From a virus (Duplodnaviria; Heunggongvirae; Uroviricota; Caudoviricetes), in the IMG/VR virus record IMGVR_UViG_3300033066_001908: DNA of 19,870 nucleotides; one strand, given 5' to 3'. This document shows positions 1 to 19,870 of this stretch, piece by piece; position 1 is the first letter of the stretch; every line of letters starts with the position of its first letter. A program made the position numbers and the translations under genes. A model generated the notes under the pieces. The model was not told the origin of the DNA. It searched no databases and saw only the letters and a list, made by a program, of their open reading frames with translations.

Positions 1-35
1 CCGGACCCACTATTCAACCAATGCGAGCCCGGCAT
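1..35 (-). CDS. Probable start of the next downstream gene (partial, MPGSHWLNSGS..., runs off the window)
   Basis: ATG at 35, 3 nt after the TGA of the 623-aa gene, preceded by an AAGGA SD-like motif; frame open to the window edge. Only 11 codons visible. Confidence 0.35.
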   Translation of the reverse strand, partial: MPGSHWLNSGS

Positions 36-38
36 GTT

Positions 39-1910
39 TCAGTCCTTCGTTGGATCCCAGCCTCGGGTCGGTCCGACACGTGCAAACGGCTTTCCTTCGA
101 TCAGAGAAGGCACGTATGACGTTCCCATCGTGTCACTTACGTCACCACGATGAACTGCGTCCAAGAGGTTACCCTTCTGACCAGACCCGAGCATTCTGGT
201 ATAAGGATCCGGATCTGTCGATACCGAGGTTGCGGCACGCAGCATCTCAGGTTCAAACGGCGGCGCTTCCGGATGGACCTGCAAAGCCTTCACGTTGTGC
301 TTCTGAAAGTGTTGTAACATCGAAGGCCTGATTTTCGTGCCAATTGTGTAATGAAGTGTCGGTACTTCCAGATATTTACCGACACTTTGTGCAGGCGAAA
401 CCATCATGGTCCCAGGCCGCGGAGTCCAGTTCCGCTCAAGCGTGTGGTACTGTACGACATCGTCCGGGGCATAGTCGCCCCAAAGATCCGTCAACCGCAC
501 GTGATCGATCATACCTCGGGTAGCCAGTTCGACGTTCCGACGATGGACTGACATCCCGGAGGCCTTGTACGCATTTCGAAAGGCATCCATAAAGTAACGG
601 CGACCTTCGCCGATCCCTTTGTGTTTGACAATTTCTGCCGGATTTGGAAGTCCGGACGAGAGAACATCCCCCGCTTCAATTGGATCACCAGGTTTGACCG
701 ACACAGTTTGTTCAGGTGGAACATAGTGTTCTTCGTTGTTGATATCGACGAAGTTTCCACCCTGTGGGGCCGGTCGGATCTGCTTCACGACTCCATCGAA
801 CTGGGAGTGCGTGGCGCCACCTGGAAAGTGCTCTGGCACTTGGGCTAATTGGTTAATCAAATCGAATCCGGTTGGCCCGGCACCAGCGATACCACCGGAG
901 TGTTTCGACGACAGCGAACCTTGCGTCAGCTTTTCGGACAAAGCCTGGCCAGCCGCAATACCCACATAATCGCCAAGCGGAGCGAGCCGCCCCCGTTCTC
1001 GGTGTCCAACATCGCGGGCATAAACACCCCCATCGGCAGGGCCGCCCACCAAAGGACTACGAACCAGAATGTGATCATGTCCAGCATCGCTAAGCTCTCG
1101 CAGAATCTTTGGCGTGACTACTGTGTTACGTGCATATCCAGCCACGGGTGCGGCAAGTAAGGCACCCACGCTGTCTCGATCAGAAGTTGGGACTGGAAGT
1201 CCTCGAATGGAATTCGGGTCTCCCGGTTCTTCATCGTCCACAGCGGACACGAGCAGCCGGTGAGCAGTTTGCTGCAGCTGTTTAGCGAAGTACCCAGAGT
1301 TTGCCGTAGCGAGTTTGGTGTCAATGACCCCACGCCGGGCACCGTACGCCCCGGCGAAGTATTCGGCCGGGGAAAGACCCTCGGAGTAGTTGTGAAGAAT
1401 CGGGAGCGCAATGCGGTTCCCATGATGATCCTCATAAGCCACATCGAAACCACGGAGACTCCGAAGATTAGTCGGATTGCCGCGCGAGCCCGAAAGGACT
1501 TGTAACGCGAGAGGATTCTTCTCAGCCAGGCTTTCATTATAAATGTCTTTCGTTAATGCGCCGCCTTCCTTGTCCATGAGGGCGTCGAGCTGTGCCTGAC
1601 GGTCCTCGTCTGACAAGTTTTTCTGCGACAAAACTTGACTGATCTGCCGTCCGATTCGGCTACGCGCAGCTTGTGTGGCAGCGGCCGGACGCAGATGCTT
1701 CAAACCAAAGGTGTTGCCACCCGACAGATAAGCAGACTCTCGAGCAACCTGCATCAGCTTGTGGACTGTGTCCCGGTACTGTTCTGGTCGTTTATCGATG
1801 ATGTCCTGCAGGAGCTTCTCAGTTGTACCCTTATCGAGCACAGTACCGTACCGGCGTAGTTCCGGAGGCAGTGCTTCTTGCACCAAAAGTTGGCCCATTG
1901 TGGTTTGCAT
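39..1910 (-). CDS. rpoC: RNA polymerase beta-prime subunit, C-terminal part (rim helices, F-loop, bridge helix, trigger loop, jaw), 623 aa
   Basis: Starts MQTTMGQLL (cf. RpoC DTTVGRAIL). SGSRGNPTNLRSL matches SGARGSAAQIRQL. Bridge helix GLSPAEYFAGAYGARRGVIDTKLATANSGYFAKQL matches [35 protein letters not shown]. Trigger loop AAGQALSEKLTQGSLSSKHSGG matches [21 protein letters not shown]. Jaw hairpin VKPGDPIEAGDVLSSG. TAATG overlap with the upstream gene. The symbol denotes homology only. Confidence 0.93.
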   Translation of the reverse strand: MQTTMGQLLVQEALPPELRRYGTVLDKGTTEKLLQDIIDKRPEQYRDTVHKLMQVARESAYLSGGNTFGLKHLRPAAATQAARSRIGRQISQVLSQKNLSDEDRQAQLDALMDKEGGALTKDIYNESLAEKNPLALQVLSGSRGNPTNLRSLRGFDVAYEDHHGNRIALPILHNYSEGLSPAEYFAGAYGARRGVIDTKLATANSGYFAKQLQQTAHRLLVSAVDDEEPGDPNSIRGLPVPTSDRDSVGALLAAPVAGYARNTVVTPKILRELSDAGHDHILVRSPLVGGPADGGVYARDVGHRERGRLAPLGDYVGIAAGQALSEKLTQGSLSSKHSGGIAGAGPTGFDLINQLAQVPEHFPGGATHSQFDGVVKQIRPAPQGGNFVDINNEEHYVPPEQTVSVKPGDPIEAGDVLSSGLPNPAEIVKHKGIGEGRRYFMDAFRNAYKASGMSVHRRNVELATRGMIDHVRLTDLWGDYAPDDVVQYHTLERNWTPRPGTMMVSPAQSVGKYLEVPTLHYTIGTKIRPSMLQHFQKHNVKALQVHPEAPPFEPEMLRAATSVSTDPDPYTRMLGSGQKGNLLDAVHRGDVSDTMGTSYVPSLIEGKPFARVGPTRGWDPTKD

Positions 1911-2152
1911 TACCGGATTCCGGGAAGAATCAGATCATCTTGTGTCATCTGGGTCGTAAATACCGTTTGAGTGACACCGACAACCTGCAACAACTTGTCG
2001 AAGTCCGCATCACCTGCTTTGGCGGCCATGATCGCACGAGCGAAGTCAGCCGCTACCAGGACAGGTGTATTATGCACAGCGTCACGGATAACAATCCGTG
2101 ACGCAATGACTTTTACTGGTCGTCCGTGGTCGTCGAGGTATTCAAGGATCAT
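1910..2152 (-). CDS. Hypothetical protein, 80 aa, between the two RNAP genes
   Basis: ATGA overlap with the upstream gene and TAATG overlap with the downstream RNAP gene; globular-looking composition; no recognised family. Confidence 0.8.
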   Translation of the reverse strand: MILEYLDDHGRPVKVIASRIVIRDAVHNTPVLVAADFARAIMAAKAGDADFDKLLQVVGVTQTVFTTQMTQDDLILPGIR

Positions 2153-3042
2153 TGTACAACGACTTGCCTTTGCTGCCGGGACGCTGCGATCATGTGCATG
2201 ACCATGTTGGCCCGGTCCTGCACGCTACCTTCAGCGGCCTCAGCCTGTTTTGGTGGAGGGAACATTTCAGTGATTGACGGAGGCGGCGTTGTGACGGCAA
2301 CCTTTTCGAATGGAATACCAAGTGACAATGCCGCATCTTCCAGATCAAAGTCTTCGTCCGCAGCAGTCTTTGGTGCGATCGCCGGCGCGAACTGCATTTG
2401 CTGCTGTTGAGGTTGTGCGTTTGGATCCTGCCCACCGGCAGCATTCGGATCGGCTCCCGGAGCTGCAACACCAGGGCTTTGGACGTTAGCGCCCATCGCG
2501 CCGGCCATCGATGGATCAGTGCCAGGTGGCGGGCCGAGCATGGCTTCCGGCGGAATCTCGACTTGAACCCCAGCCTTGTTGAGGGCTGTGATGATTGCCA
2601 TCAGGAACGTGTTCGTTTTGTAGAGCTGCAGTGCGACTTCATCGCCACCTTTGCTCTTCTTCGGGCCAGCGGCACCGGCCGCGCCAGGCATACCAGGCTG
2701 TCCGCCTTGCTGCATAGCTTGCTGCACAGCCTGCGTGACGACCTGTTGAATCATCATCATCATCTCAGGAGGTGGGCCAGCTGGCGCACCCCCAGCCCCG
2801 CCAGACGGATCTCCACCTGGAGGCGCTCCGGAGGGATCGCCAGGAGGCGGCGCACCGCCCATTGATGGATCGCCGCCTGACGGGGGAGCCCCACCTTGAC
2901 TTGGATCGCCGCCAGGAGGAGGAGCCCCGCCAGCGGCTGGATCGCCACCGGCTTGTCCTGCCGGAATGAACGCGGCCTTTCGGAGACCGGTGTTGTTCTT
3001 TGCCAGCTCCAACAGAAGTGGGTTGAGCTTCATCGTGGACAT
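2149..3042 (-). CDS. Gly/Pro/Ala/Gln-rich low-complexity protein (about 297 aa), function unknown
   Basis: Fills the gap after the RNAP fusion gene. Start ATG 3042 has a GAGGA SD; the GTG at 3057 (GTGA overlap) is the alternative. GGDP repeats, MMMM and QQQQ runs, no Cys. Confidence 0.82.
   Translation of the reverse strand: MSTMKLNPLLLELAKNNTGLRKAAFIPAGQAGGDPAAGGAPPPGGDPSQGGAPPSGGDPSMGGAPPPGDPSGAPPGGDPSGGAGGAPAGPPPEMMMMIQQVVTQAVQQAMQQGGQPGMPGAAGAAGPKKSKGGDEVALQLYKTNTFLMAIITALNKAGVQVEIPPEAMLGPPPGTDPSMAGAMGANVQSPGVAAPGADPNAAGGQDPNAQPQQQQMQFAPAIAPKTAADEDFDLEDAALSLGIPFEKVAVTTPPPSITEMFPPPKQAEAAEGSVQDRANMVMHMIAASRQQRQVVVQ
2800..2949 (-). repeat. In-frame tandem repeat encoding (G)GDP-x-x-GGAPP, five degenerate units
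   Basis: Plus-strand GGATCGCC/GGATCTCC cores start at 2807, 2834, 2867, 2903 and 2939 (spacings 27, 33, 36, 36 nt). Translation: GGDPAAGGAPPP GGDPSQGGAPPS GGDPSMGGAPPP GDPSGAPP GGDPSGG. Confidence 0.85.
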
Positions 3043-3053
3043 AAGGCCGGTCC

Positions 3054-6000
3054 TCACTGATCGGGATTAAGGATTTCTACTTGCTGTCCGAGGTGCCCGA
3101 GCCCGCGTTTGAAGGCCTGGATCGCTTCGGTCTTGGTTTTGAACCGCATTGGCTGATCGTTTGTACGCGCTGAAGTTGCCGCATACAAGCCCCCTAAATA
3201 CTCCTGACTGGGCTGGTACATCGGCCGGAATTCAGAAACGGACAATAGATTACGACTTGGCATCATCTTTGTATAGGCGTCACGAACAGCTTCATGGGTC
3301 GCTGGAACGTGGAACTGCATCGCATCCCCATCGTAATCCCCACCGAAACCTTTGATTACGATCGGCGAAGTTTCCAGGTTGTGGCCCTTGGTCAATCGCG
3401 GTCGGAAGGCCATCACACCATACCGGTGCAACACCGGTGCGCGGTCAATGATCAGCGGACGTTCTTCCATAACTGATAGCAAAGCCTGTCGGGCAGTGGC
3501 GTGTTTGCCATGCACTAAAGCCGCTGCGCGCATCGGTGACATGCCGCGCTTGACCATGTGACGGACGATGAACGGCTGGTAGATCTTCCATGCAGAATCT
3601 TCTGGTACGCCGACCTGATCCATGTCGAGGTCTGGATTCGGAATGATGGTGGATCGCCCAACGAGATCTGTAGTGCTGCCCAGAAGTCGGCGCTGAACGA
3701 CAGACCATTTTGGTGATGTGCCAAGGACATGTTTGAGAACCCCTTTGACTTCTTGTTCCTGGAGCTTTGCTGGCGCGGGATCACCCAGACCAGCGACTGC
3801 GCGCATAGAGTTATACAGCGCCAGACGTTCTTCCGAAACGTCTGCAAAACTCTTCTTATTCTCAGCCAGGTTCTGGTTGGTCTCGAAGAGATCGCGGTAC
3901 AGGTAATTTGGATCTGCCACCATGGGCACGTCCGATCCTTTCATCTTGGATACTGGACGAAATTGTGGTGGCAACACCGGCGCAGCGGTCCAAAACCACT
4001 CACGAGGGTGCAATCCTGTCTTCTTAATGCCCAACAGAAAACCAATCTTCTTGATTGCCTCGTCACGGGCTGTCTTACGTCCGTTGCGAACATCATATGC
4101 GGTGCGAGCTAGCTCAGTATCGACGTTCATTCGATCGAGTGCATTGTACAACGCATCTGGTCCAGTCTGATCGCCGAACTTCTCGCGGCCGGCGATGATC
4201 TCCGTGTATTGGTTCTTGGTCAGACCCAGCAGCTTTCGGATCGGATCTTCCATGACAGGGTTCGGCATGCGCTCAGTCAGCGGGATCTTTGCCCATCGAC
4301 CGCCATTGGCGCCGCCAAACAACTTCTCATCAAACAATCCGCCTTCGATCGGCTTTAGATTGCCAGAGTTCCAGTCGACTGTATCGGGTCGTTGCAGTAC
4401 GCGATCACCAGCGAGATCGTCGATGTTCTTCTGGGTCATCGCCATGATCTGCGTACGGGTACCGGTGCGGACTGGATTGATACCAGCCGCCTGCAGATTG
4501 CTGACGAACTTCTTATAGACAAATGGAACAGGCGGATCAGGAGGCTCCCGTCCGCTCATGACAGCGGCCCAGTATTCAGGATTGCGCTGGCCACGCACCA
4601 GGCTACCGTCACGAGCGACCTCAGTGCCACCGTGACTCAGGATGGCATTGAGGTGGAGCATCCCCCATGTTTTGGATCCTTCAGGGCCACCCTTCGCAGG
4701 AGCTTCGTCTGCCGTGTAGGTACCAAGACCACGTGCGGAGGCCTTCGATTCTGAAATGTGATGGAGCTTCATCAAGAAGCTGTTACCCACAAGCACACCA
4801 GGAATCTTACGACCGGTGACAGGATCCGTCACGTCTTCGGTGTCGGACATACCGTGGCGCTGCAACTCTTGCTGCGTGAAGTTCGCCAGGTCATCGATGT
4901 TATCGAAGTCTTTCACCCGGTAACGTTGACCAGTGACTGCGGCGATCTTGCCCAACAGCATTTCGGGAACCTGGCTGGGGTTTGATCGAGAGATCACACC
5001 CAACGGGTTCTGCAGAAACTCGAGCGGCTTACCGTCTTGCGCGACTGGCATCTCGTGATCAGGGATCACTGCCGCCACGACACCCTTGTTACCGTATCGA
5101 CCGGAGACCTTGTCACCGACCTGCAGTGGCATTGTGGTCTTCACGGCAACCGTGACACCTTTGTCCGTACGATGCACGTCGGTCACGATCCCCGGAGCTT
5201 CATGCTCCCAGGTTTCAGACTGATCACTGAAAGCGTGTGCCCGGGCGCCGGACACGTCGCCAACACGAGGCCGCCGCTTAGCGACGGCCAGCATCAGCGG
5301 GTCACCGTGTTCAACACGTTGTCCAACTTGAATGACGCCATCGGGACCGAGCTTGTCGAGCTGATCCTTCTGGAAGTTACCGGAGAAAATCGAGGAGAAC
5401 TTTCGCTTATCGACCTGACTGTTGTCAGGACTGTTCTCGATCATGCTCTTGTACATATGCTGTGAAGCAAAGCGTTTCGCGGCCGACTCGCTGATCACCG
5501 TGGCGTCTTCGAAGTTGTAACCTCGAAGCGGCAAGTAACCAGTGCGGACATTCAAACCCAATGCGGTCGCGCCGGTGTCGTCTGTGTAATTGCTCTTCGC
5601 CAACAAGTGGCCCGCGGCGAACTGTTGTCCTGGTTGAACCAACGGCTCCTGGTGCAAGTATGTCTTCCGCGCGGAAGGCATATTCTGCGCCAGCTCGTGT
5701 GTCTGCTGCGTACCGTCTTGATATTGGACCGTGATACTGTCGGGCTTCACATCGAGCACGCGCCCAGGTTGCGCGGCCCGTACAGCACCCATGCGTGTCC
5801 CGTAGGCTTCTTCAAAGGACTGATCGGAATCAGGGCTGCCTGACTGCACAAAGGGTGACTCGCCTTTGTTAATCGGCAGTGCTTGGGTCATCATGCGTGC
5901 CGCCATCGCGACGCGCTGACCCTTCATGCCCGACTTCATCGGAACCATATTGGCCAACGGAGACAGTGCGTGCTCCATGTGTGGCACCTGGTAGTCGACC

Positions 6001-7559
6001 GTGTCGGACGAAACCAGGCTAATCTTTCCATTCTTGAGCGCTGGCACGTAGTACCTGGTCTGTCCGTTGGGATGTGGGTTTCCGGGCGCTTCGTAGATGT
6101 GCCCGCGAGCCAAAGCTTGCCGTACCCGCATAAAGGTATCGTTGTCCATCTGCTGTCCGACCTGCGGTGGCGTCACACCAGGGAAGGCCAGCGTCTTGCC
6201 GAACAGCGACATCGGATCCTTCCAGACCGTCTGACCAGTCCGGACATCCTTGAACGGAGCATAGACCTCGCCATTTGGGCCTTTACGAAGGTTCCGAACC
6301 ATGCGAGATTCCACCCCGGCACGTTCAGACTCAGGTGTAACCAGAAAGTCGAGGTACCCAAAATGTGACGGTTGTACCGATCGGGAAGTCTTCGGAATGG
6401 CATCGGACGAAGGCAGACCACCATAACCCATACGGGTCACGCGCATCTGCTGGTCGAAAGTCATTGCCGGGTTAATACCTTCCGTCGATTGGGCCAGACC
6501 ACTGTCGAGCAAAGCGCCCCGGACATTCTTGTTCAGGGCGTTTGTCAGTACGGTGCCCAGCATTCCCTTTCGGGAAGAGCGCCAAAGCAATTGCCGCAGG
6601 TTGTTGTGTCCGCCGTTGATTCGCTCAGCGATGAGATCCTCCGGTCCGACCAATCGCATAAAGCCCAGATGATCACGATCGTCTTGTTCTGCGGCTTGCA
6701 GACCCAGCCGCTGTAGGAACTCCGGGTTCTTACGATTCTTGACCGCCAGCAACCGACGTGTGGTTGCCAGGATCATGTCAGCTGACACCTTGTCAAATGG
6801 TTGACCCAGTGTCTGTTGATTCACGGCCGGATCCAACTTGGTGCCTTCCATCGCAGCCCTGATCGCCATCTGCTGTTGTTCAGCTGTGGCGGGCTGTGCG
6901 TTCTTGACCAGACGTTGATAGAGTTTCAACGTGTCACCGGCCGAACTCTTCTTGAGATTCACGGCGGCCAGGTCATTGCCCCAGGCGTTCCGGAGTTGTT
7001 CTGTGCTGGTACCCATGGCCTGCAGGAGCGGCACAATCGGGATCTTTGCCTGCCCCACGCGTACTCGAAAGATACCGGTTTGCGGGTCCATAAAGATACG
7101 ATGGGGGACACCTTGACCAGGCAACACGTTGACGTGTGCCTCCAACTCTCCATTGTCCTTTTCGCGGGTATAGACCCCGGGTTTCAAGCGAAGCTGACTG
7201 GCCACCGTGTACTCGGTGCCATTGTCAATCATTGTCCCACGATCCGTGTAGTACGGAATCTTCGCCAACGTAACCCGGCGGCTATCAAGGGTTTGCCCGG
7301 TTACATTGTCAACCAAATGAGCATCGGCCCGAAGTCGTCGACCGACAGTCTGTCGTGAGAGCAAGGCCTGCTTTTGAACAGCCAGCGGAACATGATCCGG
7401 ATCATCATAACCCGGGTTGGTGAACTTCAACGTGTGGGTCTGTGACGCGATCGGCGGCAGCTTGGTAACTGCCGACAGCGCACTATCGAAAATCGCCCCT
7501 CGGACAGCCGCTGGATCGTCGACCGACCGTCCGGGCGGTTGAAGGGGATCGAGATTCAT
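3054..7559 (-). CDS. rpoBC: RNA polymerase fusion protein: complete beta subunit joined to the N-terminal catalytic part of beta-prime, 1501 aa
   Basis: Beta motifs: IPYYTDRGTMIDNGTEYTVASQLR, RVTRMGYGGL, SHFGYLDFLVTPE, GYNFEDA, GDKVSGRYGNKG, NPLGVISRSN, MKLHHISESKASARGLGTY. Beta-prime motifs follow in frame after about 4460: PDTVDWNSGNLKPIEGGLFDEKLFG, PVLPPQFRP, LLGSTTDLVGRSTI, RAPVLHR and catalytic GGDYDGDAMQFHVP (motif at 3324-3344). TAATG overlap with the upstream gene. The symbol denotes homology only. Confidence 0.95.
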   Translation of the reverse strand: MNLDPLQPPGRSVDDPAAVRGAIFDSALSAVTKLPPIASQTHTLKFTNPGYDDPDHVPLAVQKQALLSRQTVGRRLRADAHLVDNVTGQTLDSRRVTLAKIPYYTDRGTMIDNGTEYTVASQLRLKPGVYTREKDNGELEAHVNVLPGQGVPHRIFMDPQTGIFRVRVGQAKIPIVPLLQAMGTSTEQLRNAWGNDLAAVNLKKSSAGDTLKLYQRLVKNAQPATAEQQQMAIRAAMEGTKLDPAVNQQTLGQPFDKVSADMILATTRRLLAVKNRKNPEFLQRLGLQAAEQDDRDHLGFMRLVGPEDLIAERINGGHNNLRQLLWRSSRKGMLGTVLTNALNKNVRGALLDSGLAQSTEGINPAMTFDQQMRVTRMGYGGLPSSDAIPKTSRSVQPSHFGYLDFLVTPESERAGVESRMVRNLRKGPNGEVYAPFKDVRTGQTVWKDPMSLFGKTLAFPGVTPPQVGQQMDNDTFMRVRQALARGHIYEAPGNPHPNGQTRYYVPALKNGKISLVSSDTVDYQVPHMEHALSPLANMVPMKSGMKGQRVAMAARMMTQALPINKGESPFVQSGSPDSDQSFEEAYGTRMGAVRAAQPGRVLDVKPDSITVQYQDGTQQTHELAQNMPSARKTYLHQEPLVQPGQQFAAGHLLAKSNYTDDTGATALGLNVRTGYLPLRGYNFEDATVISESAAKRFASQHMYKSMIENSPDNSQVDKRKFSSIFSGNFQKDQLDKLGPDGVIQVGQRVEHGDPLMLAVAKRRPRVGDVSGARAHAFSDQSETWEHEAPGIVTDVHRTDKGVTVAVKTTMPLQVGDKVSGRYGNKGVVAAVIPDHEMPVAQDGKPLEFLQNPLGVISRSNPSQVPEMLLGKIAAVTGQRYRVKDFDNIDDLANFTQQELQRHGMSDTEDVTDPVTGRKIPGVLVGNSFLMKLHHISESKASARGLGTYTADEAPAKGGPEGSKTWGMLHLNAILSHGGTEVARDGSLVRGQRNPEYWAAVMSGREPPDPPVPFVYKKFVSNLQAAGINPVRTGTRTQIMAMTQKNIDDLAGDRVLQRPDTVDWNSGNLKPIEGGLFDEKLFGGANGGRWAKIPLTERMPNPVMEDPIRKLLGLTKNQYTEIIAGREKFGDQTGPDALYNALDRMNVDTELARTAYDVRNGRKTARDEAIKKIGFLLGIKKTGLHPREWFWTAAPVLPPQFRPVSKMKGSDVPMVADPNYLYRDLFETNQNLAENKKSFADVSEERLALYNSMRAVAGLGDPAPAKLQEQEVKGVLKHVLGTSPKWSVVQRRLLGSTTDLVGRSTIIPNPDLDMDQVGVPEDSAWKIYQPFIVRHMVKRGMSPMRAAALVHGKHATARQALLSVMEERPLIIDRAPVLHRYGVMAFRPRLTKGHNLETSPIVIKGFGGDYDGDAMQFHVPATHEAVRDAYTKMMPSRNLLSVSEFRPMYQPSQEYLGGLYAATSARTNDQPMRFKTKTEAIQAFKRGLGHLGQQVEILNPDQ

Positions 7560-8443
7560 TATACCGCCGGAGGTTGAAGGACCAGATGAGGTGGAGCTGG
7601 GTTACGAAGCTGTTGTGCTCGGCGTCGAGCCAGCAATGCTTCCTGCAGAGCCTTCGAGTCACTGGTGTTTCGCGCATACTGGTAAGCCAGAATCCCGGTC
7701 GGGACACCGGTCACAGCTGCGATTGTTGCCAGGCTACCAGCACCGGCACCAGCGACGTTCTTGAGTGCGTTTCGAGCCCACGGGTACGTGACCAGGGCGT
7801 CCATGCCACCTTCAGCAGTCTTCCGGATGATCTCACGGGCTTCGTTCAGACAGGCCACCTTCGGGTGCAGGCCTTGGATCGCCTGTTCGTATTCTTGCTT
7901 GGCCGCGTTCAGGTCTTCATCAGCAATGCCAGCGCGATGCTTATCCGCCAGCCAGTCAACCAGCTTCCAGCCGCCAGCGCCCGCAGCCAAACCGCCGCCA
8001 ATCATCGCAGGCCCTTGCCACCACTTAGCGGCCGGGTTCGTGGTACCCAGCGGGTCGGCCATCTGCAGTGCTGGTTTGAGTGCGTTGTCATAAAGTCCAG
8101 TTGCCACGCGGCCCAGCGTGCTTTCAGCCATCTTGCTCGCGGCCAACATCTCCTGACGACGTTGTTCTTCCGGATCCATCGGGACTGGGACTTCAACCGG
8201 CAGGGCGGCGCCTGTCCTTGTTGTGGGTTGCGGCGGACCGCCAAGCAGCGACGGGACTTCCTTGCCTACGCGGGCCAAGGCGCCCAGTCCGAACATACCA
8301 ACGCCAGCACCCAAGACATTCTTGAGTGCCGCGATGTCCGCCAACTGCGACGGGTCATGTGCCCGCTTGCTGTAGGTGGAGAGCCGGTGGAGCGACAGGG
8401 CCTCGTAACTCGAAGGGCACTTTGCCTCTTGGGATTTCGCCAT
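7559..8443 (-). CDS. Ala/Gly-rich protein with three glycine-zipper-like hydrophobic segments (about 294 aa); possible virion internal/ejection protein
   Basis: Segments VLGAGVGMFGLGALA, AMIGGGLAAGAGGW and VAGAGAGSLATIAAVTGVPTGILAY. ATG 8443 has a GGAG SD, but the start is uncertain because it overlaps the upstream gene by 89 nt. Function is inference. Confidence 0.75.
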   Translation of the reverse strand: MAKSQEAKCPSSYEALSLHRLSTYSKRAHDPSQLADIAALKNVLGAGVGMFGLGALARVGKEVPSLLGGPPQPTTRTGAALPVEVPVPMDPEEQRRQEMLAASKMAESTLGRVATGLYDNALKPALQMADPLGTTNPAAKWWQGPAMIGGGLAAGAGGWKLVDWLADKHRAGIADEDLNAAKQEYEQAIQGLHPKVACLNEAREIIRKTAEGGMDALVTYPWARNALKNVAGAGAGSLATIAAVTGVPTGILAYQYARNTSDSKALQEALLARRRAQQLRNPAPPHLVLQPPAV

Positions 8444-10465: not shown

Positions 10466-11476
10466 TTATCGGTACTGCCAACGCCCCTGTTGCGCTGGAT
10501 AGTATTGGGGCCAATAATATGTTGGCTGCTGCACCGTCACGGTAACATTTTGAACTGGCTTAGTCAAAGGTTGCGCCTGCGCCGGCTTTGGATTCTTCTG
10601 TCGTTTCTGCGTAATGGCCTTGCCCCGAGGGGTCCGATAGGTCAATTGATCCGCATCGCCGAGCAGCAGATTCGCCAATTCATACGGGTCAGATGGGATG
10701 TCATCCTTTCCAACCAAGCGCTTTTCTTCTTTACCGTTATTCAAAATGATCAATGTTGGCAGGCTTTCGATCCTATAACCCTTCAACATACCGGTAAGGT
10801 GTTCATCGAAGTCCAGCACGGCAATCAAAGCCTGTGTGTCCCGCGTCGAACAATTCCAACCGCCAGCTTCCAAGATATGGGCTGCTGCCTTGACTGGCTC
10901 GCATGGCTTGCACCATGTGCCACCGACAATCAGCATCTGGCGAATCGGCGGGTTTACATCCTCGACAGCTGATGCTGGTTCTTCCGCGCAGGCCATAGCG
11001 ACAGCAGACAACGGGGCCACAGGCACCATCGCAATTTGGTTGCTGTGATGCCGGTTGTTGTGTCGGCCAACCGGACAATGATCGCATCGGCAGCCAGGAC
11101 CGCAGGTACACGGCTGCTGACAACGACAGTGCGGGCCGCAAACACCATTATTTGGCGACGGTCCGGGGCTCGGATCGGGATTCGGAGAAGGGTTGTCCGG
11201 TTTCTTACAGTGGCAGTATTTGCCGCATGGACAAGGGATATCGATGATCCCGTCGCCCGATTTCACCTTCTTCGTACCGTGACACTTCTCGCAATATTGA
11301 TGGGTTTCATCACCGTCTTGGTTGTCGTCAGGCTTGTCGGGTTGAGGCGTAACGTGTCCGCCAGGGGCCAGCATCCACATCAAAACAGTGACGCGCGCCT
11401 TCTCGAACTGCAGGTCATTCTGGTCGGCAGTTGGGCTGCCGATCAGAGACGCCAGGAGTAGAAGTGTGTAGGTCAT
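10466..11476 (-). CDS. Exported Cys-rich protein with a C-terminal thioredoxin-like domain (WCKPC), about 336 aa
   Basis: ATG 11476 lies 2 nt after the upstream stop. N-terminal hydrophobic leader MTYTLLLLASLIGSP. Clusters CEKCHG...CPCGKYCHC and CGPHCRCQQPCTCGPGCRCDHC. Thioredoxin fold motifs GGTWCKPC...YRIESLPTLIILNNGKEEKRLVG (cis-Pro motif). Confidence 0.85.
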   Translation of the reverse strand: MTYTLLLLASLIGSPTADQNDLQFEKARVTVLMWMLAPGGHVTPQPDKPDDNQDGDETHQYCEKCHGTKKVKSGDGIIDIPCPCGKYCHCKKPDNPSPNPDPSPGPSPNNGVCGPHCRCQQPCTCGPGCRCDHCPVGRHNNRHHSNQIAMVPVAPLSAVAMACAEEPASAVEDVNPPIRQMLIVGGTWCKPCEPVKAAAHILEAGGWNCSTRDTQALIAVLDFDEHLTGMLKGYRIESLPTLIILNNGKEEKRLVGKDDIPSDPYELANLLLGDADQLTYRTPRGKAITQKRQKNPKPAQAQPLTKPVQNVTVTVQQPTYYWPQYYPAQQGRWQYR

Positions 11477-11478
11477 GA

Positions 11479-12390
11479 TTAGAAAATGTCTCCGAGATTG
11501 AACTTCTTCACTGGGTATCCATCCAGGTCGCTGTAGGCCCACGAATCCTGCATGGAGAGCATGTTCCGTTCGATGACTTCAGCGTCGATCCAGAACGAGC
11601 CCAGTGGTTGATCGAACGTGGTCGGACCAGACACCCAGTCCGGACCCCAGCTATTTTGACACAGCGCACCAGGTCGACCTGACTCGTCGTCTGCGGCAAT
11701 GAACACCATCTGGTGTCCCCAGTTGCCGCTTGGACGCAGAAAGCCGGCCTTGTCTCGCACATTCGTGAAACCCTGGTTTGAGGCCACCGTGACCGGATAA
11801 CCGGCCGCGATGGCATCGCAGAGTTCCGAGAACGTCGTCACCAGCGAAATGGTTTTCACCAAGTGCTTACGTGATTCAGGTTCCAAGTCATCAGGGCAAC
11901 CCGCGTCTGGCGCACCCCACTGCTTGGCCCGGTTACCGTCGTACACGCTCAGGTCGATTTTGCCATACTTCTGGCGAACCAGAGTACCGCCACGCTTGAC
12001 CCACTCAGCAGCCCAAGCACCAACAGAGCCATCCCCGTTTCCGAGTTGGCCCTTGCCGATCTCAACACGGCTTCCAGCATAGATCGGTTCCGTGGCCGTT
12101 TCCGCGATATACTCGGACTTGTTCATCACAAATTCGAGTGCGCGCAGAATGTCCACAGCACCACCGGCGCCCATCGAAACGCAGTCGCCAATCGTCTGGA
12201 AGCGTGGCCGCCACTTGTCTTTACCACCGACCGCTTTGTACAGCGCCTGGTAAAGTAAAGTCCGTTTACCTTTACCGGCACCAACAGAGCCCGTGGCTTG
12301 GGATCCGGACACGAACTGAGGGAACTTCTGAGCAGAAGCAATCGCCTCAACTTCTTTTGGCTTATGGAGCCACCCACAAAGATGCAACAC
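11479..12390 (-). CDS. Papain-like cysteine peptidase (clan CA, C1-like), 303 aa
   Basis: Catalytic elements in papain order: FQTIGDCVSMG (oxyanion Gln, catalytic Cys), WGHQMVFIA (His), CQNSWG (Asn). GTG start overlaps the upstream TAG. Confidence 0.88.
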   Translation of the reverse strand: MLHLCGWLHKPKEVEAIASAQKFPQFVSGSQATGSVGAGKGKRTLLYQALYKAVGGKDKWRPRFQTIGDCVSMGAGGAVDILRALEFVMNKSEYIAETATEPIYAGSRVEIGKGQLGNGDGSVGAWAAEWVKRGGTLVRQKYGKIDLSVYDGNRAKQWGAPDAGCPDDLEPESRKHLVKTISLVTTFSELCDAIAAGYPVTVASNQGFTNVRDKAGFLRPSGNWGHQMVFIAADDESGRPGALCQNSWGPDWVSGPTTFDQPLGSFWIDAEVIERNMLSMQDSWAYSDLDGYPVKKFNLGDIF

Positions 12391-14603: not shown

Positions 14604-15328
14604 GTGTTTCGCATCCCGAAGTACCGGCTCCACAACTGCTCGTATGGTGCCATGAGGCTAAACTTGGAAGCGGGAGTGGTATCACCACGTTCCCACGCGT
14701 TTCGCCACAATTTGTACCCATAGACGTTTTCTTGGTCTAGTTCGGGTGTTGGGTTGATCATCATGTGCGACATGTCCCGACCGAAAGGGCAACCCTGTGC
14801 GGCAGTTAGAATTGTGGCGTCTGGCCGCGTCGGCCAGTGATCGTGGATGACATCCATCAGGTCCGCAACCGGTTTGTCTGATTCCTCCAATTCATTTTCC
14901 GCAGAATCGACTGCCCGTTGCGCGATGGCGCTTCCTGCTGGAAGCCTAAGCAGATAAGGCGAAAGGCCGTGACGATCTGGATCGCGCACGGCCAGGAATG
15001 GACTTTTGGGTAACGGTTGAGTCAGCACGTAATCGTTGTCGACCCAAACACCGCCATGACGGAAAAGTGCTGCGCACATGAAGCGCAGTCGAAAATTCTG
15101 ATGTTTGGGATCTTTGTCACGCGTCAGCTCGTCTTCCGGGACGATCTCAGCGCCGTCCTTGTATTCCGCCGGTACAGGTAATACCCCCAACCAACGCTGA
15201 CTTCCGTAGACGTAGGCGTGATGTTCGTACCCAGCAGAGAGACACGACTCAATCGAGAGTCGTTCCATACGTGTGATTGGCTGAAGGTGCAGAGAAAAAG
15301 ACAACCCGATTGTCGGAGCGGCGAGCAT
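14600..15328 (-). CDS. Glycosyltransferase, DxD-type GT-A (GT32 / capsular-synthesis-like), 242 aa
   Basis: RLRFMCAALFRHGGVWVDND resembles the D-x-x-R...L-x-x-x-GG-I-Y-x-D-x-D signature of GT32-like enzymes. N-terminal RLSIESCLSAGYEHHAYVY and late YGYKLWRNAW segments fit that family. TAATG overlap upstream. Confidence 0.75.
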   Translation of the reverse strand: MLAAPTIGLSFSLHLQPITRMERLSIESCLSAGYEHHAYVYGSQRWLGVLPVPAEYKDGAEIVPEDELTRDKDPKHQNFRLRFMCAALFRHGGVWVDNDYVLTQPLPKSPFLAVRDPDRHGLSPYLLRLPAGSAIAQRAVDSAENELEESDKPVADLMDVIHDHWPTRPDATILTAAQGCPFGRDMSHMMINPTPELDQENVYGYKLWRNAWERGDTTPASKFSLMAPYEQLWSRYFGMRNT

Positions 15329-15900
15329 TAGGAACCCTTCCCGACCGAGTTCCTCCCGAGGACTTTACTTCGGCGAACTGCGATCGTGATATGAAAACGG
15401 TGCTTGTCTTCATTGGGAAGGCTGCTTAGACCATAACTCCGTCGAAGCCTTTCCAGTGCCGGCGAATGCACCTGGATGAACCAAACCTTTTCCATATCAC
15501 CCCACCCTGACGGCTTTACCGTCTGTACCGGGCCGAGTGTGTATGGAAACTGATGTCCACGTTCCGTGATCTTGTCCGCTCCCCCGATCTGCTCGATTTC
15601 ATCTGGGTTCATGACTGTGATATGCGCGTTGTACTGCCCAGTAGATTCTTTCTTGGGTAGCTCGATCCCTTGTTCGCCCAAGGCATCGAAAGCGCCGCGA
15701 CCCAGTGCATTTGGTACGTTGAGCAGCAACCAGCCGCTTGACGAGACGTACAGCGAGCCCATCAGGGATTGCACCGTTTCCGGCTTCCCTGCCGTCTTAC
15801 ACAACATTGTGTGCGCGTACGACTGATCGTAAACGCGCTGCTGCAACCTCATGTTGAGCATGGCTTCAAATTCTGCACCGATCAAATTCAGTCTGAACAT
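15328..15900 (-). CDS. 2H phosphoesterase superfamily protein (LigT / Acb1-like), 190 aa
   Basis: Two H-x-T-hydrophobic motifs: NAHITVM (about 15613-15624) and RFHITIA (about 15382-15393), about 77 residues apart as in the 2H fold. Confidence 0.82.
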   Translation of the reverse strand: MFRLNLIGAEFEAMLNMRLQQRVYDQSYAHTMLCKTAGKPETVQSLMGSLYVSSSGWLLLNVPNALGRGAFDALGEQGIELPKKESTGQYNAHITVMNPDEIEQIGGADKITERGHQFPYTLGPVQTVKPSGWGDMEKVWFIQVHSPALERLRRSYGLSSLPNEDKHRFHITIAVRRSKVLGRNSVGKGS

Positions 15901-16792: not shown

Positions 16793-19700
16793 CTATCGAA
16801 ATGGTTGAATCAAATCCGCACAGGCTCGGTAGGAGCCTCGAAGAAACCGTAAGGTCTCGCAGACCTGGCGCATTGTGATCTCTTGCTCGAGCTTGGCCCG
16901 CTTCCGACTGCCGATCCCGATCTCTGTACTACCGGTGCAACTGTCGACGTGCTGCCGGTAGTACAAAAGTGGCCGTCCGGAAACATAGAACTTGAGATCT
17001 CGGGCGGCAGCCCGAAGGAAGAAGTCCGTATCAAGAGACGCCTTGTTGGTCTCTGTGTCGTTGAAGTCCCAGTAGCCGCCCAACTGCTCGAAAGCTCCTT
17101 GGGTAAAACCAGAGACAGGGTTAATGGCAAAATACCAGGATCCAGGATATGGATAGGTAGCTTCCAGCACGCGCATGCTGCCACCGAAGGCCAGCACGGC
17201 TGCCGTGAAGATATCGGATCCGCTCTCGCGCAGACCGTGTGCGGTATACCAAGCCCGCATGGAATGGCTGACATCGTCTGCATCTTGAATCATCCAACAT
17301 TTAGCAGACTCGCGAGCCAACACAGCATTCACGGCCATGAACTGGCCGATGTTTCGTATTGTCTGGAAGACCTTCACGCCTGGCATGTCTCTCGCTTCGA
17401 TCATGAACCAATCAGCTTCACGACTTTGCGAGAAGTCATCCACCAGATAGACGGTCATGACCGCCTTCTCTTGTGCCAGCAAGCTCTCAAGAGCCGCGCG
17501 TGCCCAATGCACTTGACCGCGGAACGGCAACACAACACTGACAGCAACGGTGCCCGGCAGTGGCGGCAATTCCCCTGGGATTGAGAACAACGGTTGCGTT
17601 GCCGGGTACCTGGCACGACTGGCTGCCACGGAAGCATGGCGACTGTTACGACCGCAAGCGATCGCATTAACCTGGAAGTCCGCCAGACTGTTGCAGAGAG
17701 CACCGGACAACCAGAAGTCGATCATGGTTTGTTTGCGAAAGCATGTTCGACCAACATCAAACGAAGCATCCGTTGTATCAACCATAAATTCCAAACCAGT
17801 GTCCCGAGTTTCGGTCACCAGGCGGATAGCTCGCGCTGGATCGTTAGCCACACCGGCAGCCGCATCCAGAATAAAGTCACTGGTCAGATCATCACGACAC
17901 GCAAGCGCCGCACCCAACCAGGAGCGACAACACGACTCGTGATAACGCAAACGAGTATCTGACAAATTGGATCGTAACTGGCTTAACTGGTCCTCGGATC
18001 CGACCGCATGCACAACCACATAGGCTTTCGCCTGATTAAGCAACTCAGTGGCTGCTTTTGTGTTATGGGCTGAATCGTCAGACAACTTGAGCACGGCATC
18101 GCAGACAATAGTCCGCTCAGGCAATGGTCGAATCGGGATGTCAGACATCCGTAGTTGCCGCAATTGCTTTCGACCGGTGCCGGTGGGATTCTTCAAGGTC
18201 TCACGCAGGTACTGGTGAAAGTTCATCGCGGCAACGTCAGCTCCAAAGTATTTTGCTACCGGAGGCAGCTCCGTCGCGGACGGTCGAGCCTTCATATCCA
18301 GAATCGTTTTGGCTAGTACAGCCGGATCGTCACCATCAAATGTGGTCCATGGCGTGTGTGCCCAATTCGGATCGTGATGGAACTCCCCGACAGCTGAGAC
18401 AGTTGGGCCAATCACCGAGCAGCCTTGCTGCAAAGCTTGCATGAGCACCAGTCCGAAGCTCTCGTGTTTGCTGCAAAGCACCAGCATGTCGACGCCAGCC
18501 AACAGATGATCGAGGTCGTCAGAAAACTCCATCCAACGGTACCGACCCGGAAGGATCCGTTTCAGCATGTCCAGGTATGGCTCTGGCTTGTCCCACTCAC
18601 TGAGGTTACCAATGTGGAGGAACTTGTAGTGCGGCGGCAACATGGCGACCGCTTGTGCCAATAACTCTGGCCGTTTGTTCGCATCCGCCCGACCAGCGAA
18701 ACAGATCACGACGTCTGCGACCTTGAAGCCCAGCTCCTTGTGTCGGATGCTGAGCACGTCTTCACGATGATCGCAGGTCTTGACCCCAGGATAGATCACC
18801 ACGACGTCTTCGCGACGTTCCGCAGGAAAGGCGAGCGCGGCCAGGTATGAAACCGCCACTGAGTGTGACGTGAATGGATCAGATGAATAGGCCCACGCTC
18901 GCGTGTAGTAATCATACCCCGAGTTGTGGGCCACAGCCACTACCGGTCCAGAATAACCGGCAGGAATACATTGGCCGATCCGCTCAAGCCCTGTATAGGC
19001 AAGAACGTCAGGCTTCCAGCGCGCGATCGCATTTGCTGCAACCTGTCGATTAGATCCACAGTCGATGACTTCGACCCCCAACGCCTGAAATTTGGCGACC
19101 AGTTTTTTATTATGCGCTGTTCCATCAACAGATACGCATCCAACCCACTTGATGCCATCGGCTTCTCCACGTTCAAACAGTTGTTCAGCCCATCGTTCTG
19201 TCCCACCGAAACCAATCGGGGTGCAGAGGAAGACGGCTCGGACCTCCGGCTTAGTGAAACGGAACTTCACGGTCGGAAGATCGTCGATTTCCGCGTATTC
19301 GTGCAGCGAAGGGATCTGGGTTCCTTCGAAGTAGACCTGCTCAACGTCCAGCGGCACTGATGCCAACACGAAATCTGCTGTCACAGCCATTCGTTTAATG
19401 GTTGTGGACAGGTTTGCGTGTTTGATACACCAGTCTGGACCTGTCAATTCAGTATAGACATCGATTCCGCGTGGCTGGGGCTGTCCAATGAGGCTTTCAC
19501 CGTCAAGAACCACTCCAGCGACCCACAGAACGTCGTCTCGACGGAATTCCAGTCGACTTTGAAGGTCTGCGTAGTCCCGACACAGCAAAATGCCGCGGAA
19601 TGGTCGATTCGCAGTACGCCAACGGTACCTATGCTCCCGTGTCCAGGCGGATACCGGGATTTGGACCTTCCGGAAGCTCTCTAAGTAGGCTGTCCAGCGC

Positions 19701-19870
19701 GCAGCACCGCGTCGAGCACTCAGATAGTCCCTCACGAACTCTTGGGCAGCTCGTACATCTTGCGGCACGACCCGTAAGTGCTCGATGAACTCACCAATCC
19801 ACTCGCAACTGGCATCGTCCCTAAACTTGTAGACCAATTCACTGTCCGACAGCACTTCCAGGTCGGGAAT
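16793..19870 (-). CDS. Multidomain glycosyltransferase (GT4/GT-B domain plus C-terminal GT2/GT-A domain), more than 1020 aa, probably 5'-truncated
   Basis: GT4: GFGGTERW, FAGRADANKRPE, DMLVLCSKHESFGLVLMQALQQG. GT2: VSVVLPFRG...VYLVDDFS...IQDADD...LGGY...DTDFFLR...YYRQH. The frame stays open upstream of the GTG at 19855 to the window edge (IPDLE...), so the true start probably lies outside. Confidence 0.88.
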   Translation of the reverse strand: MPDLEVLSDSELVYKFRDDASCEWIGEFIEHLRVVPQDVRAAQEFVRDYLSARRGAARWTAYLESFRKVQIPVSAWTREHRYRWRTANRPFRGILLCRDYADLQSRLEFRRDDVLWVAGVVLDGESLIGQPQPRGIDVYTELTGPDWCIKHANLSTTIKRMAVTADFVLASVPLDVEQVYFEGTQIPSLHEYAEIDDLPTVKFRFTKPEVRAVFLCTPIGFGGTERWAEQLFERGEADGIKWVGCVSVDGTAHNKKLVAKFQALGVEVIDCGSNRQVAANAIARWKPDVLAYTGLERIGQCIPAGYSGPVVAVAHNSGYDYYTRAWAYSSDPFTSHSVAVSYLAALAFPAERREDVVVIYPGVKTCDHREDVLSIRHKELGFKVADVVICFAGRADANKRPELLAQAVAMLPPHYKFLHIGNLSEWDKPEPYLDMLKRILPGRYRWMEFSDDLDHLLAGVDMLVLCSKHESFGLVLMQALQQGCSVIGPTVSAVGEFHHDPNWAHTPWTTFDGDDPAVLAKTILDMKARPSATELPPVAKYFGADVAAMNFHQYLRETLKNPTGTGRKQLRQLRMSDIPIRPLPERTIVCDAVLKLSDDSAHNTKAATELLNQAKAYVVVHAVGSEDQLSQLRSNLSDTRLRYHESCCRSWLGAALACRDDLTSDFILDAAAGVANDPARAIRLVTETRDTGLEFMVDTTDASFDVGRTCFRKQTMIDFWLSGALCNSLADFQVNAIACGRNSRHASVAASRARYPATQPLFSIPGELPPLPGTVAVSVVLPFRGQVHWARAALESLLAQEKAVMTVYLVDDFSQSREADWFMIEARDMPGVKVFQTIRNIGQFMAVNAVLARESAKCWMIQDADDVSHSMRAWYTAHGLRESGSDIFTAAVLAFGGSMRVLEATYPYPGSWYFAINPVSGFTQGAFEQLGGYWDFNDTETNKASLDTDFFLRAAARDLKFYVSGRPLLYYRQHVDSCTGSTEIGIGSRKRAKLEQEITMRQVCETLRFLRGSYRACADLIQPFR

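Follow-up and report, generated by a model that had tools for sequence, protein, structure and literature searches.

A bacterial-type RNA polymerase of tailed phages with beta predicted to be fused to the N-terminal part of beta-prime and the remainder of beta-prime encoded separately

Introduction

The RNA polymerases (RNAPs) of cells are built around two large subunits, beta and beta-prime, which are held together by alpha and omega. Can the boundaries between these subunits be redrawn, and if so, in what order do such changes occur and what is the resulting enzyme used for? The question is raised by positions 39-7559 of a 19,870-nucleotide stretch of DNA (the window) from IMG/VR virus record IMGVR_UViG_3300033066_001908, a member of the Caudoviricetes; the window represents 19.9 kb of an 83.9-kb metagenomic contig. 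An original prediction held that a 1501-amino-acid (aa) open reading frame (ORF) joins beta to the catalytic half of beta-prime, that a 623-aa ORF supplies the rest of beta-prime, and that this fusion-plus-split is an independent architecture of a divergent phage RNAP lineage. As judged from sequence, four translationally coupled genes of a large, uncultured tailed phage make up an operon at 39-7559, and its predicted product is the catalytic core of a bacterial-type two-barrel RNAP in two chains.

Fusion of beta to beta-prime and splitting of beta-prime are known separately; what is new is their combination, together with a form of the enzyme that is free of zinc sites and of cysteine. No description of a fused-and-split or single-chain phage RNAP layout was found in the open-access literature, subscription papers lying outside this coverage.

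Two chains with redrawn boundaries

The first chain, P0001, unites the Pfam families Rpb2_3 and Rpb2_6 (PF00562; residues 599-949, E 9.6e-55) with Rpb1_1 (residues 1168-1239) and Rpb1_2 (PF00623; residues 1362-1432, E 2e-19). In a search of solved structures, cyanobacterial beta aligns to residues 32-1057 and Bacillus subtilis beta-prime 142-539 to residues 1105-1496, while beta chains in the PDB match P0001 at E 1e-47 down to 2e-69. The Pfam and PDB alignments bear out the proposed fusion of beta to beta-prime within the 1501-aa ORF, and the junction, originally placed at 4445-4480, agrees with the one measured here (4425-4484). At the junction, the C-terminal tail of beta and approximately the first 15 residues of beta-prime are missing, and the beta-prime zinc ribbon just downstream is deleted, leaving a gap of ~32 residues relative to bacteria and phage Carin-5. 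Further along the chain lies the catalytic Mg-binding motif, in which D1408, D1410, G1411 and D1412 are invariant in 32 relatives (alignment A1); a motif census indicates that the GGDYDGD variant is restricted to the window's subclade. The beta-prime-N portion stops in the loop just ahead of the TTxG(R/Q) motif, and the protein ends with ...PSQEYLGGLY...VEILNPDQ before its stop codon. The whole floor of the active-site cleft is predicted to lie within this one polypeptide.

The second chain, P0004, begins with the TTxG motif, as had been claimed for the 623-aa ORF, its N-terminus reading MQTTMGQ. Pfam families Rpb1_4 and Rpb1_5 (PF04998; E 2.5e-22) are found in this protein, and actinobacterial beta-prime ~660-1153 aligns to its residues 2-476. 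When aligned to Thermus beta-prime, the trigger loop retains the catalytic His337, and other residues stand in place of the bacterial Met, Arg and Phe; E326, T329, Q330, K336 and H337 are invariant (alignment A2). The second beta-prime zinc site (CxnCxxC near the bridge helix) is lost, P0004 reading VRSPLVGGPADGGVYARDVG with no Cys. An AlphaFold2 (AF2) monomer model of P0004 has a mean pLDDT of 59, and the folds that it matches best are without exception those of bacterial beta-prime chains (E ~1e-19). Mapping of Rpb2 and Rpb1 domain profiles onto both ORFs places the boundaries as first proposed, with both double-psi barrels in P0001 and the bridge helix and trigger loop in P0004 (table 1).

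Both RNAP genes of the original prediction are real, but they are not neighbours: two conserved genes lie between them (2149-3042 and 1910-2152) and had been overlooked. All long ORFs in the window are on the minus strand. The TGA of the P0001 gene is separated by 11 nucleotides from the ATG of P0002, which has a GAGGA Shine-Dalgarno sequence 8 nucleotides upstream; the P0002 stop overlaps the P0003 start as ATGA, and the P0003 stop overlaps the P0004 start as TAATG.

Table 1. Features of the polymerase operon in the window and of two single-chain relatives.
Feature	Sequence	Position	Strand	Basis
P0001, 1501 aa; complete beta and N-terminal beta-prime (clamp, catalytic double-psi barrel) in frame	window	3054..7559	-	Pfam, PDB alignments, homologues
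Beta portion, residues 1 to ~1034; Rpb2_3 and beta double-psi barrel with flap (Rpb2_6)	window	4458..7559	-	Pfam, PDB
Fusion junction, residues ~1026-1045; ...AAGINPVRTG joined to TRTQIMAMT...	window	4425..4484	-	alignment
Beta-prime N-terminal portion, residues ~1035-1501 (467 aa); Rpb1_1 and Rpb1_2	window	3057..4457	-	Pfam, PDB, alignment
Catalytic Mg-binding motif, D1408-Y-D1410-G-D1412 in GGDYDGDAM	window	3324..3338	-	alignment A1, motif census
P0002, 297 aa	window	2149..3042	-	counted from ATG at 3042
P0003, 80 aa	window	1910..2152	-	ORF; overlaps P0002 stop and P0004 start
P0004, 623 aa; C-terminal beta-prime (funnel, bridge helix, trigger loop, C-terminal region)	window	39..1910	-	Pfam, PDB alignment
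Bridge helix, P0004 residues ~190-212; GARRGVIDTKLATANSGY...	window	1275..1343	-	regular-expression hit and alignment to T. aquaticus beta-prime
Trigger-loop N-terminal arm, P0004 residues ~322-340; ...EKLTQGSLSSKHSGG	window	891..947	-	alignment to Thermus beta-prime
Single-chain ORF, 2066 aa, ATG start; Rpb2_3, Rpb2_6, Rpb1_1, Rpb1_2, Rpb1_3, Rpb1_5	L040	3989-10189		Pfam
Single-chain ORF with two inteins, the first right after the catalytic DxDGD	L041	3929-12100		Pfam

Distribution of the layout

The best 120 protein clusters matching P0001 are all 1450-1520 aa long, at 48-83% identity and 99% coverage. Contigs of P0001 homologues reach 385 kb, and some of the genes are interrupted by inteins or LAGLIDADG genes. 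A search of IMG/VR for the same partition found 27 loci with relatives at 31-49% identity; in those that are sufficiently long, the fused gene ends at query residue ~1496 and is followed 0.5-2.2 kb downstream by a same-strand gene whose product aligns from P0004 residue 1-4. No related locus of adequate length departs from this partition, and the break is always at the same alignment column. Among cultured phages, it is present in Salmonella phage Arash (1525 + 606 aa) and in Vibrio phages D69, D148 and D181 (1527 + 609 aa). An arrangement peculiar to the window can be set aside, since hundreds of metagenomic relatives and the four cultured phages have the same layout, which by the evidence of their genes is common to hundreds of mostly uncultured phages. 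Because the catalytic Asp triad is invariant in 32 relatives and the partition recurs, the partition observed here is not a matter of chance.

Phage contigs of the family (L038-L043) have been binned in metagenome-assembled genomes (MAGs) labelled Thermoguttaceae, Planctomycetaceae, Leptolyngbyaceae, Bacteroidales and Cytophagia, names that may hint at the hosts or may simply reflect contigs binned wrongly. Many relatives of P0004 (P0124-P0243) have a beta-prime-C that is extended C-terminally to 1100-2100 aa, the extensions including NUDIX, AAA-type kinase, PF18905 or InPase domains, and in locus L031 a gene for a 1117-aa NUDIX protein (17553-20906) comes after beta-prime-C. No unsplit beta-prime was found among the best 120 of these longer relatives, which carry Rpb1_5 together with inteins or extra C-terminal domains.

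The window comes from a single metagenomic contig, and an error of assembly or gene calling, or a decaying bacterial rpoBC pseudogene, could produce such a pattern. This explanation has next to no probability, given that four sequenced isolates and >100 independent contigs, drawn from different studies, have the partition, that the ORFs are intact and their catalytic residues invariant, and that the clade lies outside bacteria. A second possibility is that the genes are divided but the protein is not, one chain being restored by an intron or other removable element in the 1.1-kb interval, by a split intein or by recoding. The RNAP genes of the family often carry inteins and homing endonucleases, introns interrupt the RNAP genes of other phages, and a sister clade described below shows a single chain to be workable. 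An intron between the halves is nevertheless ruled out: no Rfam family, introns included, is found at E<=1 in window 1-8000, and two conserved coding genes, whose starts and stops overlap, occupy the interval so fully that a ribozyme core would not fit. A split intein is ruled out by the alignment of both protein ends to beta-prime up to the break, with no unaligned termini. In Arash, moreover, the halves are 4.8 kb apart, with opposite-strand genes in between. A split that is only apparent is, taken together, very improbable.

Two chains of this kind would assemble non-covalently into the usual crab-claw enzyme, the break falling in a variable surface loop through which the chain of the sister clade runs uninterrupted.

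Genes between the two halves

P0002 is rich in Pro, Gly, Ala and Gln around a conserved hydrophobic core, and is kept in the window's subclade. Its counterparts in three relatives show 50% (L031) and 41% (L032) identity, the third being alike in composition, and the counterparts of P0003 in three relatives show 62%, 47% and 32% identity. By this conservation, P0002 and P0003 are judged to be real genes. A profile of P0003 recovers 92 representative clusters among 1.8 billion proteins, nearly all of ~80 aa; each of the three distant members sampled is encoded between a P0002-like Pro/Gly-rich gene and the beta-prime-C gene, directly upstream of the latter. Neither P0002 nor P0003 has a match in Pfam or PHROGs, and the ESM Atlas gave nothing usable. 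Prediction of a complex of P0003 with beta-prime-N 1290-1501 and P0004 returned a score of 0.00, which counts neither way.

The gap holds different small genes in other subclades, where a P0002 profile matches none of the gap ORFs. The small proteins encoded there begin MPFKS.AQRR...ATPKGKKLPE.VK or carry ..AL.KLG(F/L) (L005, L008, L015, L021, L023 and L030); L021 has a LAGLIDADG-like ORF in the gap between its polymerase genes, and gap ORFs of the other subclades are located at L021 14352-14890 and L023 15387-16021.

A single-chain sister clade and the order of events

A scan of prokaryotic genome bins yielded six members of the family on phage-sized contigs, and in two of the six (L040 and L041; table 1) beta, beta-prime-N and beta-prime-C are in one frame. 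A search with the L040 protein found at least 120 clusters (P0244-P0363), all of those listed scoring >1670 bits and most being 2030-2115 aa in length. Contigs of this single-chain clade are 140-200 kb, and the form has no cultured member in the phage collection searched.

Phylogenetic trees were built from concatenated beta and beta-prime under LG+C20 PMSF, using a quick search and SH-aLRT support only. The family forms one clade (support 100) that falls outside the sampled bacteria (100), as the proposal of a divergent phage RNAP lineage would have it, and it is not placed within a normal bacterial clade. The split forms, among them those of the window, Arash and D69, make up one group (97 and 99), and the full fusions are sister to them (94 and 89, or 100 when the long-branched L041 is removed). 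The split and single-chain clades agree in the register of the junction (...G(I/V)xVxxxG followed by xxLxxxPLTDxxI...) and in an identical ~32-residue deletion of the zinc ribbon, which is kept in bacteria and Carin-5. Since the sister clade shares the same junction, the fusion is not a separate invention of the split form. Of the independent architecture originally envisaged, the layout and its divergent lineage stand, but the fusion is common to both clades. At the fission point, the full-fusion proteins read straight through (...VINVGGN-ATTAGRIL...) where the bacterial proteins carry a variable insertion; the break of each split subclade falls at one and the same column.

The outgroup state, seen in bacteria and Carin-5, is a separate beta and a whole beta-prime. 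Counted from this state, fusion followed by fission requires two events and the alternatives three, so that the split is most simply explained as a later fission. From the sequences we consider it fairly likely that there was one ancestral fusion with loss of the zinc ribbon, then fission in one daughter clade: the beta::beta-prime fusion and loss of the N-terminal zinc ribbon would have arisen once, in the ancestor of a large phage clade, after which one daughter clade would have cut the gene just before TTxG(R/Q) and other genes would have come into the gap. The reverse order, in which beta-prime was split first, beta was then fused to beta-prime-N and the single-chain clade later rejoined the pieces, draws on the reciprocal sister relationship of the two architectures, under which one change inside the family suffices in either direction, and on the frequency with which phages split beta-prime at the same domain boundary (RP13, IME392 and phiKZ-type). 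However, it needs the third event, the jumbo-type breaks lie ~35 residues upstream, and the connection across the break site is short and clean in the full-fusion clade; we regard this order as rather unlikely.

Cysteine content, sigma factors and proposed use in the virion

The four proteins P0001-P0004 contain no Cys in 2506 aa, and the other 15 ORFs of the window contain 73 in 4176 aa (~1.7%). For the two polymerase chains (2124 residues), none is observed where ~37 would be expected at the window rate; the two off-frames of the P0001 gene contain 72 and 50 TGY codons. Cysteine is likewise absent from 95 of 120 stored proteins of the P0001 family, the query included, and from 80 of the 120 longer beta-prime-C forms. 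The full-fusion clade has a median of 4 Cys, and bacteria have 7-29.

A functional analogy is provided by phage N4 (NC_008720; L131 34523-47523), in which gp50 (the virion RNAP or vRNAP, 3500 aa), gp51 and gp52 have no Cys in 4294 aa, while the N4 intracellular polymerase and replication proteins have 0.9-2.2%. The three N4 proteins are ejected, and within the capsid the polymerase is in an unfolded or loosely folded state (PMC13434306, which is silent on cysteine). In both cases, a virion RNAP operon would comprise a polymerase and small partners, all cysteine-free, that leave by way of the tail and regain their fold inside the host. N4 is a podovirus and its vRNAP is a single-subunit, T7-like enzyme that is not homologous to the one described here; any likeness of P0002 and P0003 to gp51 and gp52 would be one of role.

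Further evidence comes from purified virions of Arash, in which Gp206 accounts for 3516 spectra, the most of any protein, and Gp216 for 1210 (PMC10585845). The fused polymerase gene comes after the portal gene in Arash and D69. One Rpb2_6 locus and one sigma70_r2 protein were found in each of three complete relatives and in Arash, which has a sigma-like Gp10 (PMC10585845), and in an IMG/VR subclade the fused gene is preceded, at a distance of 8-9 kb and on its own strand, by a sigma-70-family gene (L005, L009, L011, L016 and L030 at ~500-2100; G001-G003). These genes make it probable that the family relies on one polymerase directed by sigma. A phage-sigma profile and Pfam detected no sigma in the window or in L031-L033, including the position used in the other subclade; one of the four sequences used to build the profile was the wrong strand of L127, and the profile still recovered five true sigmas at E<1e-50.

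On the Arash spectra and the analogy with N4, the balance tilts slightly towards a polymerase that is packed in the virion, injected with the DNA and used for transcription of early genes; the packaged enzyme may be the phage's only RNAP. It is also conceivable, if less probable, that this is an ordinary intracellular polymerase for middle or late genes that is never packaged, its cysteines and zinc sites having been lost by drift or by adaptation to the redox state of the host. The enzyme of the window phage is known from genes alone, the window has no recognisable structural genes, the Arash authors note possible carry-over of abundant enzymes (PMC10585845), and the fully fused clade keeps its median of 4 Cys. 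Such a role sits poorly with the leading rank of Gp206 among Arash virion proteins, with the position of its gene after that for the portal and with the missing ~37 cysteines, an exact match to the N4 ejection cassette; with one RNAP set in the relatives, early transcription would otherwise rely on the host.

Packaging and injection could be extended to the operon as a whole, which would then be an ejection cassette: an RNAP free of zinc and cysteine and independent of alpha and omega would be stored unfolded or loosely folded, threaded through the tail and refolded from two chains, with P0002 and P0003 as co-ejected helpers like N4 gp51 and gp52, and the fission would have been selected for easier tail passage or refolding than is possible for one 2100-residue chain. 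This extension of the analogy is speculative and, in our estimation, unlikely to hold in full.

Taken together, a two-chain core that arose by fusion then fission and is used in the virion is a likely account of the operon. A number of points weigh against it. The AF2 monomer model of P0004 is poor (pLDDT 59). The two architectures are reciprocal sister clades, and the tree alone gives no direction; the tree data were flagged for composition heterogeneity, the bacterial sample was chosen by similarity with archaea and eukaryotes left out, and Carin-5 sits on a very long branch. The cysteine argument is a computed analogy and not a published rule, the absence of cysteine is not strict in homologues of P0002 and P0003, and an IMG/VR subclade retains cysteines at the second zinc site. 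Arash is just 28% identical; its authors allow for carry-over of abundant proteins (PMC10585845), and its mass spectrometry does not prove specific packaging nor, being bottom-up, can it prove two separate chains. Finally, the window (19 ORFs) and L031-L033 yielded no gene for sigma, alpha or omega, 19.9 kb of the 83.9-kb contig being visible.

Other genes in the window

The remainder of the window encodes a 358-aa protein with 18 cysteines and a weak match to thioredoxin, under the Pfam cut-off (10466-11542); a 2H phosphoesterase ('Swiss Army Knife') domain protein (15328-15900); and a glycosyltransferase that combines GT1 and GT2 domains and, extending past the window edge, is at least 1025 aa long (16793-19870). 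The remaining ORFs of the window have no family match. At its other end, the window stops 38 nucleotides past the P0004 gene.

Implications

The same catalytic machine appears to work with its subunit boundaries redrawn, either as a single chain of ~2060 residues or as beta::beta-prime-N plus beta-prime-C. Both clades do without the N-terminal zinc ribbon of beta-prime, and the window's subclade has also lost the second zinc site and all cysteines. The two sister clades amount to a natural fusion-and-fission experiment on a central enzyme, and they offer a compact one- or two-gene polymerase of bacterial type for structural and synthetic-biology work. If use in the virion is correct, this would be a second, unrelated case beside N4 of a polymerase built for injection, and the cysteine-free signature would be a simple sequence marker of ejected phage proteins; by analogy, absence of cysteine may serve as such a marker in general.

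Comparison with other RNA polymerases

In cyanobacteria and plastids, beta-prime is likewise divided shortly after the catalytic barrel, into RpoC1 (gamma) and RpoC2. Residues 189-545 of cyanobacterial gamma (625 aa) align to P0001 1133-1483, and gamma ends ~60 residues beyond the P0001 end, in keeping with the earlier statement that the cyanobacterial split is slightly later. TTxGR therefore differs in its placement, staying in gamma; beta is separate, and the enzymes are cellular holoenzymes with alpha, omega and sigma.

Fused rpoB-rpoC genes also occur in Wolbachia, and fusions of the Helicobacter type are not known to have undergone a later fission. The fusion in Helicobacter and Wolinella was described by Zakharova et al. 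(1999), as cited in PMC1557499. In these bacteria, beta is joined head-to-tail with beta-prime in one frame, as in P0001, but the proteins are cellular, ~2900 aa in length, with a complete beta-prime, zinc sites, alpha and omega, and they are unrelated in the tree. The window does not contain a complete rpoB-rpoC fusion: there is a stop codon at 3054-3056, and two genes precede beta-prime-C. A separate bacterial-type rpoB-rpoC fusion, unrelated to the phage family, was observed on L075, a 7.4-kb contig in a MAG labelled Gammaproteobacteria, where an open frame of at least 2016 aa (1356-7403) has the full set of Rpb2 and Rpb1 domains.

The enzymes of phiKZ/AR9-like jumbo phages (PMC7598289, PMC7824862) are also two-barrel RNAPs without alpha or omega in which beta-prime is split after the barrel, and one set is found in the virion. 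In both phiKZ-type enzymes, beta-prime is split 'following the DPBB domain', coinciding with cyanobacteria (PMC7598289). The profiles of jumbo-type beta-prime-N (PHROG 2987 and 2986) end at ~P0001 residue 1465, ~35 residues before the break, as do the split genes of phages IME392 and RP13. That phiKZ and AR9 use other splits is accordingly correct at the level of residues but not at that of the domain boundary, which is the same (PMC7598289); the jumbo-phage split is probably a separate event, at another residue of that boundary. In the jumbo phages, beta is split in two or three pieces and is never fused to beta-prime, whereas beta of the window is whole and fused; they have two RNAP sets per genome and no sigma, whereas the relatives of the window have one set and a sigma; and their sequences are far more divergent from bacterial RNAP.

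The mReC phages, Carin-5 and Va2 are tailed phages whose RNAP aligns well to that of bacteria and branches deeply outside them. Beta-prime is unsplit in Vibrio phage Va2, Cobetia phage Carin-5 and Rhizobium phage Y65; in Carin-5 the zinc ribbon is kept, and a sigma gene adjoins those for the RNAP. The mReC contigs were selected on a separate beta and beta-prime of >=800 aa with NADxDGD (Weinheimer & Aylward 2020, PMC7481178); in the window, by comparison, the pieces of beta-prime are 467 and 623 aa and the motif is GGDYDGD. All 48 of the 48 rows examined in Supplementary Data 2 pair two different, unsplit proteins, with beta of 900-1520 aa and beta-prime of 900-1390 aa (PMC7481178), and within these rows the kinship first suggested with metagenomic phages carrying a deep-branching beta/beta-prime is not upheld. 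The six IMG metagenome IDs that carry loci of the family are not among the mReC contigs listed in the part of that source considered here (PMC7481178). In the same material, several mReC contigs list two beta/beta-prime pairs (e.g. 1362+1009 and 1019+899 aa on one 308-kb contig; PMC7481178), against a single set in the window's family.

The single-chain clade is sister to the split clade, sharing with the window the junction register and the loss of the zinc ribbon; it is cysteine-poor and is found on phage contigs of similar size. It differs by having no fission, Rpb1_3 being recognisable across the site, and by a motif that is mostly NADFDGD where the window has GGDYDGD.

The closest cultured counterparts are Arash Gp206/Gp216 and the proteins of Vibrio phages D69, D148 and D181, whose genes are labelled 'beta', 'beta-prime' or hypothetical in their records; the Arash paper does not discuss the layout (PMC10585845). 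The Arash polymerase is 28% identical to that of the window, with nine other genes in the 4.8 kb between its halves. The Arash and Vibrio phages have different intervening genes, with no homologue of P0002 or P0003, and 1-4 Cys per chain, but they belong to the same clade and have the same partition, with beta-prime-C beginning from the same column.

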